Source: Shigella phage SFN6B
Sequence record: KY684082
Reading direction: 5' to 3' (one strand)
DNA length: 43,036 bases
Below are positions 6,442 through 25,761 of the stretch, one piece after another. Position 1 is the stretch's first letter; the number at the start of each line of letters is the position of its first letter. A model generated the notes under the pieces. That model saw only the letters and a list, made by a program, of their open reading frames with translations, made no database searches and was not told where the DNA came from. A program made the position numbers and the translations under genes.

Positions 6442-6912
6442 ATGTCTAAGTTTAAAGTTGGTGATAAAGTTGTCCGCAAATCACCCGACGACAGTTCATC
6501 GTTTAAGAAGCACCAAGGGGATTTTGATTACTACACAGTTACAGATATGTCCCCAAGCGGCCACTGGCTGCAGTTGGACAACTTTACTATCGACGATGAC
6601 TATTACCCGTGGTGTGCAACTAACTTCGAGCTGTACCAAGAGCTGGACGACGAGCTGCCGCCTGCACCAACCTCAGTACTCTATTACCATAGCACTGCGG
6701 ATGCATATAACTTGCAGCATATGATCGTGCAACCACATTGGGAGTTAGAGGGACATCTCAGTATCGCTATCGTGAAGAGCGGTAAAAAGTTCGATCCCCT
6801 GGCTTACGGTGATGCATTATCCCTCAACCTGGAACCCGATGCAGCCTTGCAGTTGGCACATGACCTATGCCGCATGGCTATGGATATTAAACGTAAGGAG
6901 AAAGCACAGTGA
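6442..6912 (+). CDS. Hypothetical protein (156 aa)
   Basis: ORF track 6436..6912; ATG at 6442 preceded by GGAGGG. Confidence 0.6.
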   Translation: MSKFKVGDKVVRKSPDDSSSFKKHQGDFDYYTVTDMSPSGHWLQLDNFTIDDDYYPWCATNFELYQELDDELPPAPTSVLYYHSTADAYNLQHMIVQPHWELEGHLSIAIVKSGKKFDPLAYGDALSLNLEPDAALQLAHDLCRMAMDIKRKEKAQ

Positions 6913-7370
6913 AGTATGAGTACAACCCGGATACCGGGGAGATACTGCGCTATGGGAAACCGGTAGGGTCTAAGGACTCCTCCGGGTACCTGGTGGTGTG
7001 GGTGGATGGTAAGTGCTGGCGTGCCCACCGTCTGGCCTACCACCTACAAGGCTTGCCGGTACCTAGACAAGTGGACCACATTAATGGAATCAAAGATGAT
7101 AACCGGTGGGTCAACTTACGTGCAGCCACTAACTCTCAGAACCAGTACAACCGCAAAGGTTGTGCTGCATCAGGAAACCTAAAGGGCGCATACTACAACA
7201 AGGCTATGCGCAACTGGTACTCCCTAATTCGTGTAGGTGGTAAGCGTAAATACTTAGGCTCTTACCGTTCGGAAGCTGAGGCCCACGCAGCCTATGTAAA
7301 GGCCTCTCAACAAATGCACGAGGGGTTTGATGTATGGACGAGCCGTGGCTTAGAGCCTGCAAGCGCCTAG
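6909..7370 (+). CDS. HNH homing endonuclease (HNH plus AP2-like DNA-binding region), paralog 1
   Basis: VDHINGIKDDNRWVNLRAATNSQN HNH core; GTG start with AAGGAG upstream; paralogs at 13318, 24732 and 35743. Confidence 0.8.
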   Translation: MKYEYNPDTGEILRYGKPVGSKDSSGYLVVWVDGKCWRAHRLAYHLQGLPVPRQVDHINGIKDDNRWVNLRAATNSQNQYNRKGCAASGNLKGAYYNKAMRNWYSLIRVGGKRKYLGSYRSEAEAHAAYVKASQQMHEGFDVWTSRGLEPASA

Positions 7371-12407: not shown

Positions 12408-13388
12408 TTGGCTAAAATTAGTTTGATTAACCTGTTCAGCAAAGACCAGCACGAGGAAGTGCTGAGTTATCATAAAGACAACACGGCGGCAGCTGCAGCC
12501 TACACAGCTATGACGGATGGGAAATACCCAGTGTCCCGCCAGCTTGTACGCTACTGGCGCAGCATCTTTATGGATAATAATGGTAGCAAGGCAAAGGCTA
12601 ATAATGCTTTGATGCAAGCCCGCAAACTAATCCAGCCCTCCCCAACGGATGACATTGGGGATACGTTTGTACCGGAAACCTGTCGACGTATTCTCGTTAT
12701 CGGGGACCTGCACGAACCGTACACACACCCGGACGCGTATGACTTTTTATGCACTGTGAGGGATGAGTACTGCCCAGACATTGTGGTGCAGATAGGCGAT
12801 GAGACAGATGGACACGCTATTAGCTTCCATGATAGCAGTCCGGAGTTAGACAGCGCTGGAGTGGAATTAGAGAAGGCCAAGCTCGGTCTGGAGAGGCTTC
12901 ATGCTCTGTTCCCTAACATGCTCCTGTGCGACTCTAACCATGGCTCCCTTGTATACCGTAGAGCCAAAGCTCATGGACTCCCTGTACAGTTCATTAAGAA
13001 GTATCGGGACATCCTGTTCCCAGAGCACGGAGCGCCGGGGTGGAGTTGGGGTGATGCTTGGGATTTAAATACTCCGATGGGTACTGTGCGATTTCAACAT
13101 CAAGTATCTGGGGACCTTCTGCTCAACGCAGCTCATGAACGTAAGTCCATGGTAATTGGACACTTCCATGGGAAGTTAGATATACAGTATGCGGCGAGCA
13201 GCACTGCTTTGTACTTTGGTGCGCACTGCGGTTGTTTAATCGACAATAAGAGTCTGGCATTTGCTTATGGTAAGTTGTCAAGAAGCAAGCCGATTCTAGG
13301 GTGTATGGTGATTACAGATGGATGCCCACAAATCATCCCCATGCTATTGGACGACACCGGCCGGTGGTGTTCTAGAGTACAACCCTGA
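12408..13388 (+). CDS. Calcineurin-like metallophosphoesterase (putative nuclease or phosphatase)
   Basis: MPP signature blocks GDLHEP, GDETDGH, DSNHG, GHFHG; TTG start after GAGAGG. Confidence 0.7.
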   Translation: MAKISLINLFSKDQHEEVLSYHKDNTAAAAAYTAMTDGKYPVSRQLVRYWRSIFMDNNGSKAKANNALMQARKLIQPSPTDDIGDTFVPETCRRILVIGDLHEPYTHPDAYDFLCTVRDEYCPDIVVQIGDETDGHAISFHDSSPELDSAGVELEKAKLGLERLHALFPNMLLCDSNHGSLVYRRAKAHGLPVQFIKKYRDILFPEHGAPGWSWGDAWDLNTPMGTVRFQHQVSGDLLLNAAHERKSMVIGHFHGKLDIQYAASSTALYFGAHCGCLIDNKSLAFAYGKLSRSKPILGCMVITDGCPQIIPMLLDDTGRWCSRVQP

Positions 13389-13827
13389 TACCGGGGAGTT
13401 CACATGGGTTAAAGTTGTTAGTAACCGTGCCAAGTTGGGAAGTACTGCTGGGCACGTAAGACCTGATGGGTACTTGGTATTGCCGTGCGGAACCCGTGCT
13501 AATGTTGCAGCGTGTATGTTGTTGGGCCTAGATGTTCCTGATGGATATGTGGTGGACCACATTAACAGGGACACCCTGGATAACCGCGCGTGCAATCTTA
13601 GGGTTGTGTCAAAGAAGGTTAATGCACACAACACGGGGCTCCGGGCCACCAACAAAACAGGTGCTCGCGGAGTCTCTTGGGATTCTAGCAGAGGCAAGTA
13701 CCGGGCCGCTCTGATGGTGGACGGAAAGCAATACAGCAGGCGCTTTGACAGCTTAGAAGAGGCCTCAGAGTGGTACCACAGTGTGGCCGACAAACACGGG
13801 GTTAGGCAATACCAGCAACCTGCATAG
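13318..13827 (+). CDS. HNH homing endonuclease, paralog 2
   Basis: YNPDTGEF... then VDHINRDTLDNRACNLRVV HNH core and AP2-like GVSWDSSRGKYRA; overlaps the 3' end of the metallophosphoesterase gene by ~70 nt; start uncertain. Confidence 0.75.
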   Translation: MDAHKSSPCYWTTPAGGVLEYNPDTGEFTWVKVVSNRAKLGSTAGHVRPDGYLVLPCGTRANVAACMLLGLDVPDGYVVDHINRDTLDNRACNLRVVSKKVNAHNTGLRATNKTGARGVSWDSSRGKYRAALMVDGKQYSRRFDSLEEASEWYHSVADKHGVRQYQQPA

Positions 13828-13896
13828 ATGTTCTTAAACCGTTAAGCCCTGCATCTGCACATAAATTTTATTTAAACTAAACGAGGACATAATTAT

Positions 13897-23416: not shown

Positions 23417-24436
23417 ATGGCAGATACTATTTATAAAGCTGGTGACACGCGGGCACACTGGGGCGGAGCGGCGTCCGACGTCGATATTCACCTGGAAGTG
23501 TACCAGAACGAAGTGGACACCCGCTTCCAGTACCAAGCGCTGTTCCTAGGCCTCTCTAGCCAGCGCTCTATCAGCGGCTCTAACACCTACCGTATCGACC
23601 GCCTGAATACCTCTGCGGTGAAGGGTCGTCGTTCTGGCGAAGCGCTGGATAGCACTCCGGTCCGTAACGATAAGATGATTATCGTAGTGGATACGGTGCT
23701 GTACATCCGTAACCCAATCGACTACCAGGACGACTGGACTGGTCCGGACTTCCTCTCTGAGATGGGTCAGAACAACGGTTCCGAATTCGCGGAGACCTTC
23801 GACCAGGCGCACCTGATTCAGCTCATCAAGGGCCGTTCCTGGGTTGCACCAGCGCACCTGAAGCCTGCGTTCAACGACGGTATTGAAGTCGGTGCCTCCA
23901 TCCTCGTAGCAGGTAGTACGCCGGATAAGCAGCTGACCCAGGCTGAGATGGAAGCCAACGCCATGAACATCAACCTGGCTCACAAGGCCGGTATCGATGA
24001 GCTCATCAAGCGTAAGACCCCGCTGATGGATATGATTACTCTGGTGGACGTAGATACCTACTCCCGACTGTTGGAGCATCCGAAGCTGTTAAATCTCGAG
24101 TTCGGCGCAACCAACGACGACGGTTACAAGAACCGCCGAGTTGTGAAGATGAATGGTGTGCCGGTAGTAGAGTGCACCGAGTTCCCGACTGCTGCTGGTA
24201 CGCATCCGCTGGGTACTGCTTACACGGTCACTGAGGATGATGCGAAATGTCGCATGGTAACTTTCAGTAAGTCCAAGACCTTGGTGACGGTAGAAGCTAA
24301 GCCGTTCACTTCTCGTATCTGGGATGACCAGCGCGAGTTCAACAACGTTCTGGACTGCTACGCGATGTACAACATCGGCCTGCGTCGTCCGGATACAGCG
24401 GCAGTGACTAAGTTCACCTTCACCACTAAAGTCTGA
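23417..24436 (+). CDS. Major capsid protein
   Basis: 339 aa; position and C-terminal similarity to T7 gp10A (YAMYNIGLRRPDTAAV vs YAMGHGGLRPEAAGAV as recalled). Confidence 0.9.
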   Translation: MADTIYKAGDTRAHWGGAASDVDIHLEVYQNEVDTRFQYQALFLGLSSQRSISGSNTYRIDRLNTSAVKGRRSGEALDSTPVRNDKMIIVVDTVLYIRNPIDYQDDWTGPDFLSEMGQNNGSEFAETFDQAHLIQLIKGRSWVAPAHLKPAFNDGIEVGASILVAGSTPDKQLTQAEMEANAMNINLAHKAGIDELIKRKTPLMDMITLVDVDTYSRLLEHPKLLNLEFGATNDDGYKNRRVVKMNGVPVVECTEFPTAAGTHPLGTAYTVTEDDAKCRMVTFSKSKTLVTVEAKPFTSRIWDDQREFNNVLDCYAMYNIGLRRPDTAAVTKFTFTTKV

Positions 24437-24447
24437 TTGGAGGTTAA

Positions 24448-24645
24448 ATGGCAGTGATCGCCGTGTTCGGTCTGGAGACTCTTCAAGCCAACGCTGCTCA
24501 ACGTGAGGCGGTAAAAGCCGCCTCCGAGGTCGCGAAGCACATTCAAGTAGGTTCGGTCGAATCTGGCCGCAAAGCTACTAAGCGTACCCGCAAAGCTGTT
24601 GATGCAGTAGCTGATGCAGCAGCAGGTACAGAAACTAAAGAGTAA
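24448..24645 (+). CDS. Hypothetical small protein downstream of capsid (65 aa)
   Basis: ORF track; GGAGG upstream; lies between the capsid gene and a terminator. Confidence 0.45.
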   Translation: MAVIAVFGLETLQANAAQREAVKAASEVAKHIQVGSVESGRKATKRTRKAVDAVADAAAGTETKE

Positions 24646-24650
24646 TATGC

Positions 24651-24687
24651 GCCCCTGGTGCCTTCGGGTGCCGGGGGCTTTTTTTTG
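24651..24687 (+). terminator. Rho-independent terminator after the capsid region
   Basis: GCCCCTGGTGCC-ttcg-GGTGCCGGGGGC forms a 12-bp stem (with G-U pairs) and UUCG loop, followed by T(9). Confidence 0.8.
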
Positions 24688-24731
24688 TCCCTGTCTTAAG
24701 GGTCCTAGGGGTCTTTAATAGAGGAACAAAT

Positions 24732-25199
24732 ATGAGAGAGTTGCTGATGTATGACCCAACGAGTCCTAGCGGGCTGCGTTGGAAGGTTGATGGTTACAGA
24801 AACACGTACCGGGCTGGGGACGTAGCTGGATGTACCCACTCTGGGACTACTGGGTATTATCAAATCGTTATTCGCGGTAAGAAATATATGAGTCATAGGG
24901 TGGTATACTTCTTAGTGCACGGGGAGTGGCCGGATACCGTAGATCACGTTAACGGTGATCGCAAAGATAATCGCATCGAGAACCTACGAGCGGCTACTAT
25001 GCGACAGAACCTGTGTAACCTGACGCGAGCCAAAGGTTTCTACTTCTCCAAAGTAAGTCATAAATTCATAGCCCAAATATGCAATTACGGTAAGAATCGC
25101 ACACTTGGCAGTTTTGACACTGCACTAGATGCGAGAGCTGCGTACCTGCGGGCTAAACTGGAAGAGCACGGTTTCGTGCCGGGGGTGGTTTATTCGTGA
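24732..25199 (+). CDS. HNH homing endonuclease, paralog 3
   Basis: YDPTSPSGLRW... VDHVNGDRKDNRIENLRAATMRQN; inserted between capsid and tail tubular A. Confidence 0.8.
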   Translation: MRELLMYDPTSPSGLRWKVDGYRNTYRAGDVAGCTHSGTTGYYQIVIRGKKYMSHRVVYFLVHGEWPDTVDHVNGDRKDNRIENLRAATMRQNLCNLTRAKGFYFSKVSHKFIAQICNYGKNRTLGSFDTALDARAAYLRAKLEEHGFVPGVVYS

Positions 25200-25752
25200 A
25201 TTAGATGCTATTAACTTAACGCTGGAAGCCTTAGGGGAGTCTCGCGTTATGGATATCAATACTTCAAACCCTAGTGCGGGGTTAGCACGCTCTGCTCTCG
25301 CGCGTAATCGCAGAGGGTTGCTCAGTACTGGTTACTGGTTCAATGTAGTTGAGCGAGAGGTTACTCCTACGACTGACGGTTTTATTAAAATTCCGTGGAA
25401 CCAACTAGCAGTATATGATGCGTGCTCCGATAATAAGTATGGTGTACGTGATGGAAACCTTTACAACCTGGTAGAGCAGGATGAATACTTCGATTCTCCT
25501 GTTAAGGTTAAAGTGGTGCTAGACCTCAACTTTGAGGACCTGCCGGAGCACGCTGCTATGTGGATTGCAAACTACACTGCTGCACAGGTGTACCTGAATG
25601 ACCTTGGCAGTGATGGCAACTACGCCAACTACGCCGCAGAGGCAGAGCGGTACAAGTCCTTGGTGTTGCGAGAGCATCTGCGGAACCAGAAGTACAGTAC
25701 AAGCAAGACCAGATTCGCACGTCGTATTCGTCGTGCACGCTTCGTGATTTAA
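25129..25752 (+). CDS. Tail tubular protein A (T7 gp11-like)
   Basis: 207 aa; alignable with T7 gp11 from the N-terminus; no in-frame start codon lies downstream of the HNH stop before the conserved region, so the start appears to be inside the HNH gene (71-nt overlap). Confidence 0.75.
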   Translation: MRELRTCGLNWKSTVSCRGWFIRELDAINLTLEALGESRVMDINTSNPSAGLARSALARNRRGLLSTGYWFNVVEREVTPTTDGFIKIPWNQLAVYDACSDNKYGVRDGNLYNLVEQDEYFDSPVKVKVVLDLNFEDLPEHAAMWIANYTAAQVYLNDLGSDGNYANYAAEAERYKSLVLREHLRNQKYSTSKTRFARRIRRARFVI

Positions 25753-25761
25753 GGAGAGCAC

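Follow-up and report, generated by a model that had tools for sequence, protein, structure and literature searches.

The 43,036 nt window analysed here (Shigella phage SFN6B, sequence record KY684082) carries a putative HNH homing endonuclease gene, HNH3 (24732–25199), immediately before the gene for tail tubular protein A (tubA), an essential structural gene of the virion. Comparison with relatives that lack the nuclease gene indicates that HNH3 has taken over the ribosome-binding site (RBS), the ATG and the first 3–4 codons of tubA, and that tubA is still complete, with ATT at its native start position. The reading favoured here, and considered probable, is that the HNH gene captured the start codon and that the essential gene restarts at ATT or, at other sites, ATA. 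By its sequence, the stretch looks like the complete genome of a podophage of the KP34 type (Autographiviridae, Slopekvirinae, Drulisvirus). Four genome segments showed 80–95% nucleotide identity to Escherichia and Klebsiella Drulisvirus phages, and none of the four segments searched had a match above 95% identity in the phage collection. The features around the tubA start are the following.

24651–24686, + strand: intrinsic terminator after the capsid and small open reading frame (ORF) genes, with a 12-bp stem and a T-run; kept with and without HNH.
24720–24725, + strand: Shine-Dalgarno (SD) sequence AGAGGA, the native tubA RBS, now serving HNH3; the same as the annotated tubA RBS of Minorna; -6.0 kcal/mol.
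24732–25199, + strand: HNH3, an HNH(-AP2-like) putative homing endonuclease gene of 155 aa; Pfam HNH_3, E-value 1.1e-15; PHROG 99, E-value 8e-54.
24732–24742, + strand: captured 5′ end of tubA, ATGAGAGAGTT (M-R-E-L), now the first HNH3 codons, from empty-site comparison.
25129–25131, + strand: in-frame ATG, 63 nt upstream of the native start position, without an SD and probably unused.
25181–25188, + strand: SD sequence for tubA, GGGGGTGG, within the last HNH3 codons; -9.9 kcal/mol with the anti-SD.
25192–25752, + strand: tail tubular protein A (adaptor, T7 gp11-like), 186 codons, proposed ATT start; Pfam Tube, E-value 1.8e-25.
25197–25199, + strand: HNH3 stop codon TGA, overlapping tubA codons 2–3; its first base lies 5 nt beyond that of the ATT.

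Comparison with HNH-free relatives, which the original prediction had put forward as a check, located the insertion at the tubA start codon and gave its length as 460 nt. In the empty sites of Minorna, ZH5, KPV811, phiKpS2, VR401 and RothG, the same terminator is followed by AGAGGAACAAAT ATG AGA GA(A/G) TTA GAC GC, encoding MRELDA, and the start-codon context in six HNH-free phages is AACAAAT ATG AGA GA(A/G) TTA GAC (empty-site DNA, AACAAATATGAGAGAATTAGACGC). An identical terminator, RBS and ATG AGA GAG TT (24732–24742) open HNH3 in SFN6B. The 3′ junction, read from 25181, is ...GGGGGTGGTTT ATT CGT GAA TTA GAT GCT ATT AAC, or I-R-E-L-D-A-I-N. As 460 nt is 3n+1, tubA lies in the +1 frame of HNH3. 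Counted from 25192, tubA is 561 nt long, the same length as tubA of Minorna, with IRELDAINL... matching MRELDAINL... and a nearly identical protein. The changes at the junction are ATG to ATT and a synonymous change of Arg codon 2 from AGA to CGT, every other codon being kept. HNH3 appears to have neither a promoter nor an RBS of its own, and the nuclease would be made from the tubA translation signals.

The proposed start was followed through 34 HNH3-containing sequences (25 haplotypes) gathered from GenBank isolates, IMG/VR and public metagenomes. At the position of the native start codon, 16 haplotypes have ATT, nine have ATC and none has ATG. The G-rich SD is kept in all 25, with one extra G in four of them. 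In SFN6B, GGGGGTGG ends 3 nt upstream of the ATT and the paired stretch ends 4 nt before it; the predicted anti-SD duplex before ATT 25192 (-9.9 kcal/mol) compares with values of +0.7 kcal/mol before ATG 25129 and -9.2 kcal/mol for the tail tubular protein B gene (tubB). The last 13 HNH3 codons, which contain both the SD and the ATT, have 4 variable sites against 1.05 per codon overall (permutation p = 2.5e-4), pointing to a second constraint on this stretch, and the SD lying there would make the 3′ end of HNH3 indispensable. Codons 2–20 of tubA in HNH-containing phages have a ratio of non-synonymous to synonymous variation (pN/pS) of 0.096, equal to that of the rest of the gene (0.093), which indicates that they are translated and argues against downstream starts. 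In T7 gp11, the loop after the N-terminal helix alpha1 touches the nozzle protein gp12 (PMC6702177), and this is consistent with the N-terminal part of TubA being retained.

The original prediction had placed the tubA start within HNH3, in an ORF overlapping it by 71 nt. The +1-frame ORF itself (25129–25752) exists, with Pfam Tube matching residues 25–189, and the stretch from 25129 to the conserved TubA N-terminus indeed contains no further in-frame ATG, GTG or TTG; a tubA start at ATG 25129 is, however, not supported, as the native position is kept as ATT 25192 followed by all of the native codons and ATG 25129 lacks an SD. The 21-codon extension from this ATG to the ATT has a pN/pS of 1.39 when read in the tubA frame, compared with 0.068 in that of HNH3, and so evolves as HNH coding sequence only. 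An upstream in-frame canonical start is absent from five of the 25 haplotypes. Four have lost it through a run of six Gs, these being two IMG/VR contigs (L015 and L022) and the cultured phages QH1 (PV759417) and RCIP0072 (OR532866), the last of which is also without GTG at tubA codon 7. In the fifth, metagenomic contig L071, a C-to-A substitution creates a TAG 15 nt before the ATT, and HNH3 and tubA are both intact. On this comparison, the upstream ATG is dispensable.

Two further observations concern this short region. The sixth G (equivalent of 25181–25185, in four independent backgrounds) alters the C-terminus of HNH3 from GVVYS-stop to GGGLFVN-stop or GGGLSVN-stop. The +1-frame ORF opens at 25129–25140 with ATG CGA GAG CTG (M-R-E-L), the same four residues that begin native TubA; this is probably a coincidence, since relatives have MLVQ, MRAQ or MPAQ.

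The same design is found at the tail fibre gene of SFN6B, where a second paralog, HNH4, is involved.

35743–36231, + strand: HNH4, an HNH endonuclease paralog on the native tail fibre RBS and ATG GC; Pfam HNH_3, E-value 1.5e-20.
36232–36236, + strand: SD sequence GGAGG directly after the HNH4 stop, 5 nt before the ATA; GGAGG or GGGGG in all eight HNH4-containing phages.
36242–37231, + strand: tail fibre/adaptor gene, with a proposed ATA start at the native start position, ATA GCT TAC TCA TGG (I/M-A-Y-S-W).

The empty site of phiHAO78-1 reads TTAAT ATG GCA TAC AGC TGG CAA. In SFN6B the 5′ junction of HNH4 is TTAAT ATG GCT GAG and the 3′ junction is AGC TAA GGAGG TCATC ATA GCT TAC TCA TGG CAA, with recoding of ATG to ATA (36242) and of Ser AGC to TCA. 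Both the ATA and an SD are present in 8/8 HNH4-containing phages examined, and the peptide encoded upstream in the fibre frame varies freely. These phages were taken from GenBank; protein and DNA-pattern scans of IMG/VR yielded no more than distant relatives, or no match at all.

A fifth HNH paralog, of 162 aa, is situated at the start of tubB in KPV811 (KY000081; L004, 1504–1992), where it is unannotated, and in VLC4 (L079, 2750–3238) and VAC25 (L080, 2749–3237). The native sequence AAGGAGAGGTT ATG GCG CAA TCA TTA GAA corresponds to a 3′ junction of TTGGAGGTGTATC ATA GCT AGT TCA TTA GAA. The ATA is accompanied in these three phages by the SD GGAGGTG. Upstream of the ATA the frame stays open for just 21 nt (seven codons), a stretch in which neither ATG, GTG nor TTG occurs, and ATA is left as the only start that preserves the conserved N-terminus. 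One design at three genes, with three different paralogs, makes chance or sequencing error an unlikely explanation. For Pectobacterium phage Clickz_B4 (Phimunavirus), which has an HNH protein of 46% identity, the annotated ORF coordinates abut or overlap and gave no obvious extra example, the junction sequence itself being unread.

Under the arrangement proposed for tubA, the protein would be initiated with formylmethionine (fMet) at AUU 25192, by means of the SD embedded in HNH3, to give the native MRELDAINL... ((f)M-RELDAINLTLEALGESR). Help would probably come from termination-reinitiation by ribosomes that reach the HNH3 UGA, 5 nt past the first AUU base, and the geometry of stop codon and ATT appears suited to such coupling. 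Reinitiation within a few codons of a stop is accepted for several T4 endonuclease genes (PMC2988022). Initiation at AUU, AUC or AUA would be plausible because an mRNA with AUA in an optimised initiation region behaved like its AUG counterpart in vitro at 20–40 °C (PMC5499595).

Several points count against initiation at the ATT. The codons AUU, AUC and AUA are weak starts in E. coli-type systems, AUC being especially rare, and the alternation of ATT and ATC would also be expected if the position were an ordinary Ile codon within the gene. Every sequence has the ATG at -63, which is in frame and open in 20 of the 25 haplotypes, so that some initiation there is possible; ATG codon 20 (25249) is likewise preceded by an SD-like motif, AGGGGAG (-7.8 kcal/mol). 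The 6-G variants could be homopolymer sequencing errors, although the TAG of L071 is a substitution and the tubB case is independent of them. No significant RNA structure that might serve coupling was found at the tubA start (minimum free energy z-score 0.03) or the fibre start (-0.43), and a 5-bp hairpin, GCACG-GUUU-CGUGC, is the sole element in the centroid fold and is without statistical backing. A search of the literature returned no proteomic, N-terminal or cryo-electron microscopy data for the adaptors of HNH-containing Drulisvirus phages.

If tubA instead started at ATG 25129 inside HNH3, the product would be a TubA of 207 aa with a 21-residue extension (...SCRGWFIRELDAINL; ...GWFIRELDAINL). 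The open frame in SFN6B and in most haplotypes would allow this, the D codon supplying the ATG is invariably GAT, and the GenBank records of Henu1_2 and VAC25 annotate a start of this type. An open frame of 21 codons is, however, expected by chance in about one case in three, and the extension peptide is unconserved (MRELRTCGLNW, MLVQRTCAPNL, MRAQRTYALNL), as its pN/pS of 1.39 also reflects. With no SD, a frame that is lost in the four 6-G haplotypes and blocked by TAG in L071, and no upstream start of any kind at the analogous tubB site, this alternative is unlikely. A start further downstream, at ATG codon 20 or, in some relatives, at GTG codon 7 or TTG codon 9, would yield a truncated adaptor and is more doubtful again. 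Such starts are used in GenBank annotations (F19 RefSeq, QH1, VLC4 and JKT5), and the SD-like motif before ATG 25249 is in their favour; but the same internal ATG and SD occur in HNH-free phages, whose start is the upstream ATG, and SFN6B tubA has neither the GTG at codon 7 nor the TTG at codon 9. Purifying selection on codons 2–20 equals that on the remainder of the gene, and the synonymous recoding of Arg codon 2, together with the exact restoration of I/M-R-E-L, would be unlikely without selection for translation. The segment deleted by such a truncation would match helix alpha1 of T7 gp11. In gp11, the gp12-contacting loop comes right after that helix (PMC6702177).

An HNH3-TubA fusion would be made if ribosomes underwent programmed slippage on the G-run (+1 for G5, -1 for G6) or a shift of +1 at UCG-UGA. 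The +1 position of tubA relative to HNH3, the ability of GGG to re-pair on GGGGG and the G-run length of 5 or 6 are compatible with this, and an SD-like element upstream of the stop recalls the frameshift site of prfB. Against it, the G-run is not followed by a slow or rare A-site codon, the spacing from SD to stop is 7 nt compared with 3 nt in prfB, and the UCG or CCG before UGA re-pairs poorly in the +1 frame. The fusion, of 340 aa, would place a nuclease domain on each of 12 adaptor subunits, which is hard to fit to tail assembly, and at the tail fibre the HNH4 stop precedes the SD and ATA, so that a shift is impossible there. Slippage is accordingly given very little credence. As a candidate for a prfB-like programmed +1 frameshift, the junction was rejected for its poor +1 re-pairing and for an SD-like element placed 7 nt upstream. 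Removal of the HNH ORF as part of a self-splicing intron or intein, restoring tubA, carries the least weight of all and is scarcely credible: the exon-like junctions ATGAGAGAGTT and AGATGCT could in principle be rejoined in frame, but the 460-nt insertion is fully occupied by the ORF and has no room for a ribozyme core, its folding z-score is about 0, and the 3′ copy keeps its own recoded codons 1–3, which would be needless under splicing. Rfam families, including group I and group II introns, gave no match in 24300–25800 at E-values up to 1. An intein was rejected because HNH3 and tubA are in different frames.

The four HNH paralogs of SFN6B were confirmed as ORFs at 6909–7370 (HNH1), 13318–13827 (HNH2), 24732–25199 (HNH3) and 35743–36231 (HNH4), as originally predicted. 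All four match Pfam HNH_3 above its curated cut-off (E-values 1e-11 to 1.5e-20) and PHROG 99, 'HNH endonuclease' (E-values 4e-40 to 8e-54). Five of the six pairs share 30–40% identity (blastp E-values 3e-20 to 1e-5) and the sixth 29.7%. The common motif blocks that had been noted (D-H...N...N-L-R) correspond to invariant columns in an eight-sequence alignment, namely D71, H72, N80, N84, L85, R86 and N96, and the HNH catalytic motif is intact. A profile of the paralogs compared with the PDB aligned with I-HmuI over the N-terminal DNA-binding and HNH part (E-value 1.2e-9), and with AP2 proteins over the C-terminal 50 residues (positions 103–155; E-values 0.003–0.8), the best AP2 matches being WRI1 (0.003) and AP2IX-6 (0.007). 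Pfam AP2 gave a weak match to HNH2 only (16.9 bits against a cut-off of 33.3, E-value 0.008). The AP2 part of the label 'HNH-AP2' has modest backing, from the PDB profile matches and a sub-threshold Pfam hit; the label as a whole seems reasonable and is modestly supported. The predicted location of HNH genes at the boundaries of essential genes holds for primase, tail tubular A and tail fibre. The paralogs are, judging from their organisation, free-standing putative homing endonuclease genes and not intron- or intein-borne. HNH3 and HNH4 are intact and under purifying selection (pN/pS 0.19 and 0.115), and so do not look like inactive remnants.

HNH1 and HNH2 differ in their arrangement.

6909–7370, + strand: HNH1, between a hypothetical gene and the DNA primase gene, with a GTG start, from sequence.
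13318–13827, + strand: HNH2, between the phosphoesterase and single-stranded DNA-binding protein (SSB)-like genes; the only canonical start is ATG 13318, with a 71-nt overlap of phosphoesterase.

The GTG of HNH1 shares bases with the stop codon before it (GTGA). At its other end HNH1 extends 37 nt into the primase gene, whose ATG at 7334 is kept. HNH2 was correctly described as lacking a canonical start near its conserved N-terminus: the nearest in-frame candidate is ATG 13318, 19 codons upstream of EYNPDTGE, and this ATG lies inside the 3′ end of the phosphoesterase gene, in sequence shared with HNH-free relatives. HNH2 takes the place of a small ORF seen in KPPK108.1 and of the last phosphoesterase codons. 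Capture with a change of ATG to ATH (ATT, ATC or ATA) does not extend to the whole family. In the KP34 RefSeq record (NC_013649) the HNH2 orthologue, gp24 (L062, 801–1226), is annotated from ATA (IWVKVV...), losing EYNPDTGE; SFN6B has ACA. The HNH1 slot (6909–7370) holds an unrelated 68-aa ORF in Minorna (L005, 892–1098), and the HNH2 slot (13390–13830) an unrelated 64-aa hydrophobic ORF in KPPK108.1 (L007, 998–1192). Both positions seem to behave as exchangeable cassette sites.

Among close relatives, each of the HNH genes occurs in some phages and is missing from others, a pattern to be expected of mobile homing endonuclease genes. At the HNH3 site, the flanks of ZH5, Hope, PSK2, Minorna and KPV811 are 93–95% identical to those of SFN6B and contain no HNH gene, while 41 GenBank records cover at least 80% of a 77-nt query spanning the HNH3-tubA junction and about 242 records match the region. 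Phage records with relatives of this HNH number 1,407. Sites 1, 2 and 4 vary in the same way: ZH5, for example, carries HNH4 and lacks HNH1 and HNH3, and Hope carries HNH2 and lacks HNH3. The original prediction spoke of a recent, ongoing invasion. The recency does not hold up: between lineages, HNH3 has diverged about as much as tubA (synonymous divergence, pS, 0.52 vs 0.48) and the junction is the same in all, which points to an old insertion that has spread patchily or been lost.

The first 30 nt of tubA (25192–25221) match the distant HNH-containing sequence L021 at 30/30 positions and the closest HNH-free relative, ZH5 (L002), at 23/30. Beyond these 30 nt the pattern reverses and SFN6B is closer to HNH-free relatives. 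This single short tract may be due to co-conversion, of which it would be a weak signature. The identity profile of the upstream flank was ungapped and, because of T-run indels, was uninformative for most comparisons. One contig, L025 (IMGVR_UViG_3300045988_001223, ~1245–1370), is a deletion derivative of HNH3 in which the first ~345 nt are gone, including the ATG and the HNH motif. It keeps the last ~120 nt of HNH3, SD and ATT included, and these follow immediately on the native RBS.

It is conceivable, although we would stop short of calling it probable, that an HNH-AP2-like lineage targets the start regions of late structural genes (tubA, tubB and tail fibre), with recoding acting as immunity and the target gene becoming translationally addicted to the nuclease gene. 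The nuclease gene would fuse in frame to the RBS, ATG and first codons of its target, and the displaced gene would keep all of its codons, the first 2–4 being recoded at every 'silent' position. The change of ATG to ATH counts as silent here because any initiator codon is decoded as fMet. The recoded first codons across the sites are AGA to CGT, AGC to TCA, GCA/GCG to GCT and ATG to ATH. Such recoding, including that of the start codon, would protect the occupied allele from self-cleavage if the nuclease recognises the empty start region; it would be equally expected if a direct repeat flanking the element had to be broken to guard against deletion. Either form of protection, from self-cleavage or from repeat deletion, is speculation. 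The retention by L025 of only the last ~120 nt of HNH3 fits translational addiction.

The closest parallels are with the free-standing seg and mob endonuclease genes of T4, which are promoter-less cassettes that use host signals and carry promoters of downstream genes inside their ORFs, favouring their retention (PMC2988022). The Drulisvirus genes resemble them in lying in or between essential genes, in overlap and coupling with their neighbours, in patchy distribution, and in having signals needed by the downstream essential gene within the endonuclease ORF (PMC2988022). In T4, however, the embedded signals are promoters and the neighbours keep AUG, whereas in Drulisvirus the embedded signal is an SD, the start has become ATT, ATC or ATA, and the neighbouring codons are recoded. 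The Drulisvirus nuclease genes also differ in taking the RBS, ATG and first codons of the target, and in doing so at three genes with three paralogs. I-HmuI (PDB 1u3e), the HNH homing endonuclease of Bacillus phage SPO1, is intron-encoded, unlike the Drulisvirus HNH genes.

Non-AUG starts are used by E. coli infC (AUU) and by an internal AUU start in the T4 baseplate gene 26. The Drulisvirus genes are similar in having an in-frame ATH where orthologues have ATG, and a good SD; they differ in that the non-AUG start is secondary to insertion of a mobile element and is probably reliant on termination of the adjacent upstream ORF. In Aeromonas phage Aeh1, mobE is inserted in nrdA and the host gene is split into two polypeptides. 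As with mobE, the homing endonuclease gene lies inside host coding sequence without an intron, but in Drulisvirus the insertion is confined to the first four codons and leaves the coding sequence of the complete host protein undivided. No paper describing a start-codon-capture arrangement was found in the searchable literature.

Current annotations of the affected genes are inconsistent. GenBank starts for tubA, tubB and tail fibre vary in at least three ways, and none of the inspected records uses the conserved ATH. For tubA, ATG codon 20 is annotated in F19 RefSeq, QH1 and VLC4, and GTG codon 7 in JKT5; tubB is annotated ~30 residues short in phages with the fifth HNH paralog. In HNH-free RothG (PQ657833; L056, 221–833), tubA is annotated 174 nt upstream of the conserved ATG, across the terminator. 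Dozens of Drulisvirus genomes from Klebsiella and Escherichia phages are concerned, and many of these phages are candidates for phage therapy.

These genes offer a natural comparative case of essential genes that apparently rely on AUU, AUC or AUA starts, with a strong SD, beside an upstream stop codon. The idea, from T4, of host signals residing within a nuclease gene would be extended from promoters to translation initiation, and the findings suggest that start-codon recoding can act as target-site immunity. For phage engineering, a clean deletion of the 'non-essential' HNH genes would remove the RBS of the tail gene unless the native ATG and RBS were restored. If initiation at the native position is correct, many therapeutic Klebsiella phages would make essential virion proteins from AUU, AUC or AUA starts.

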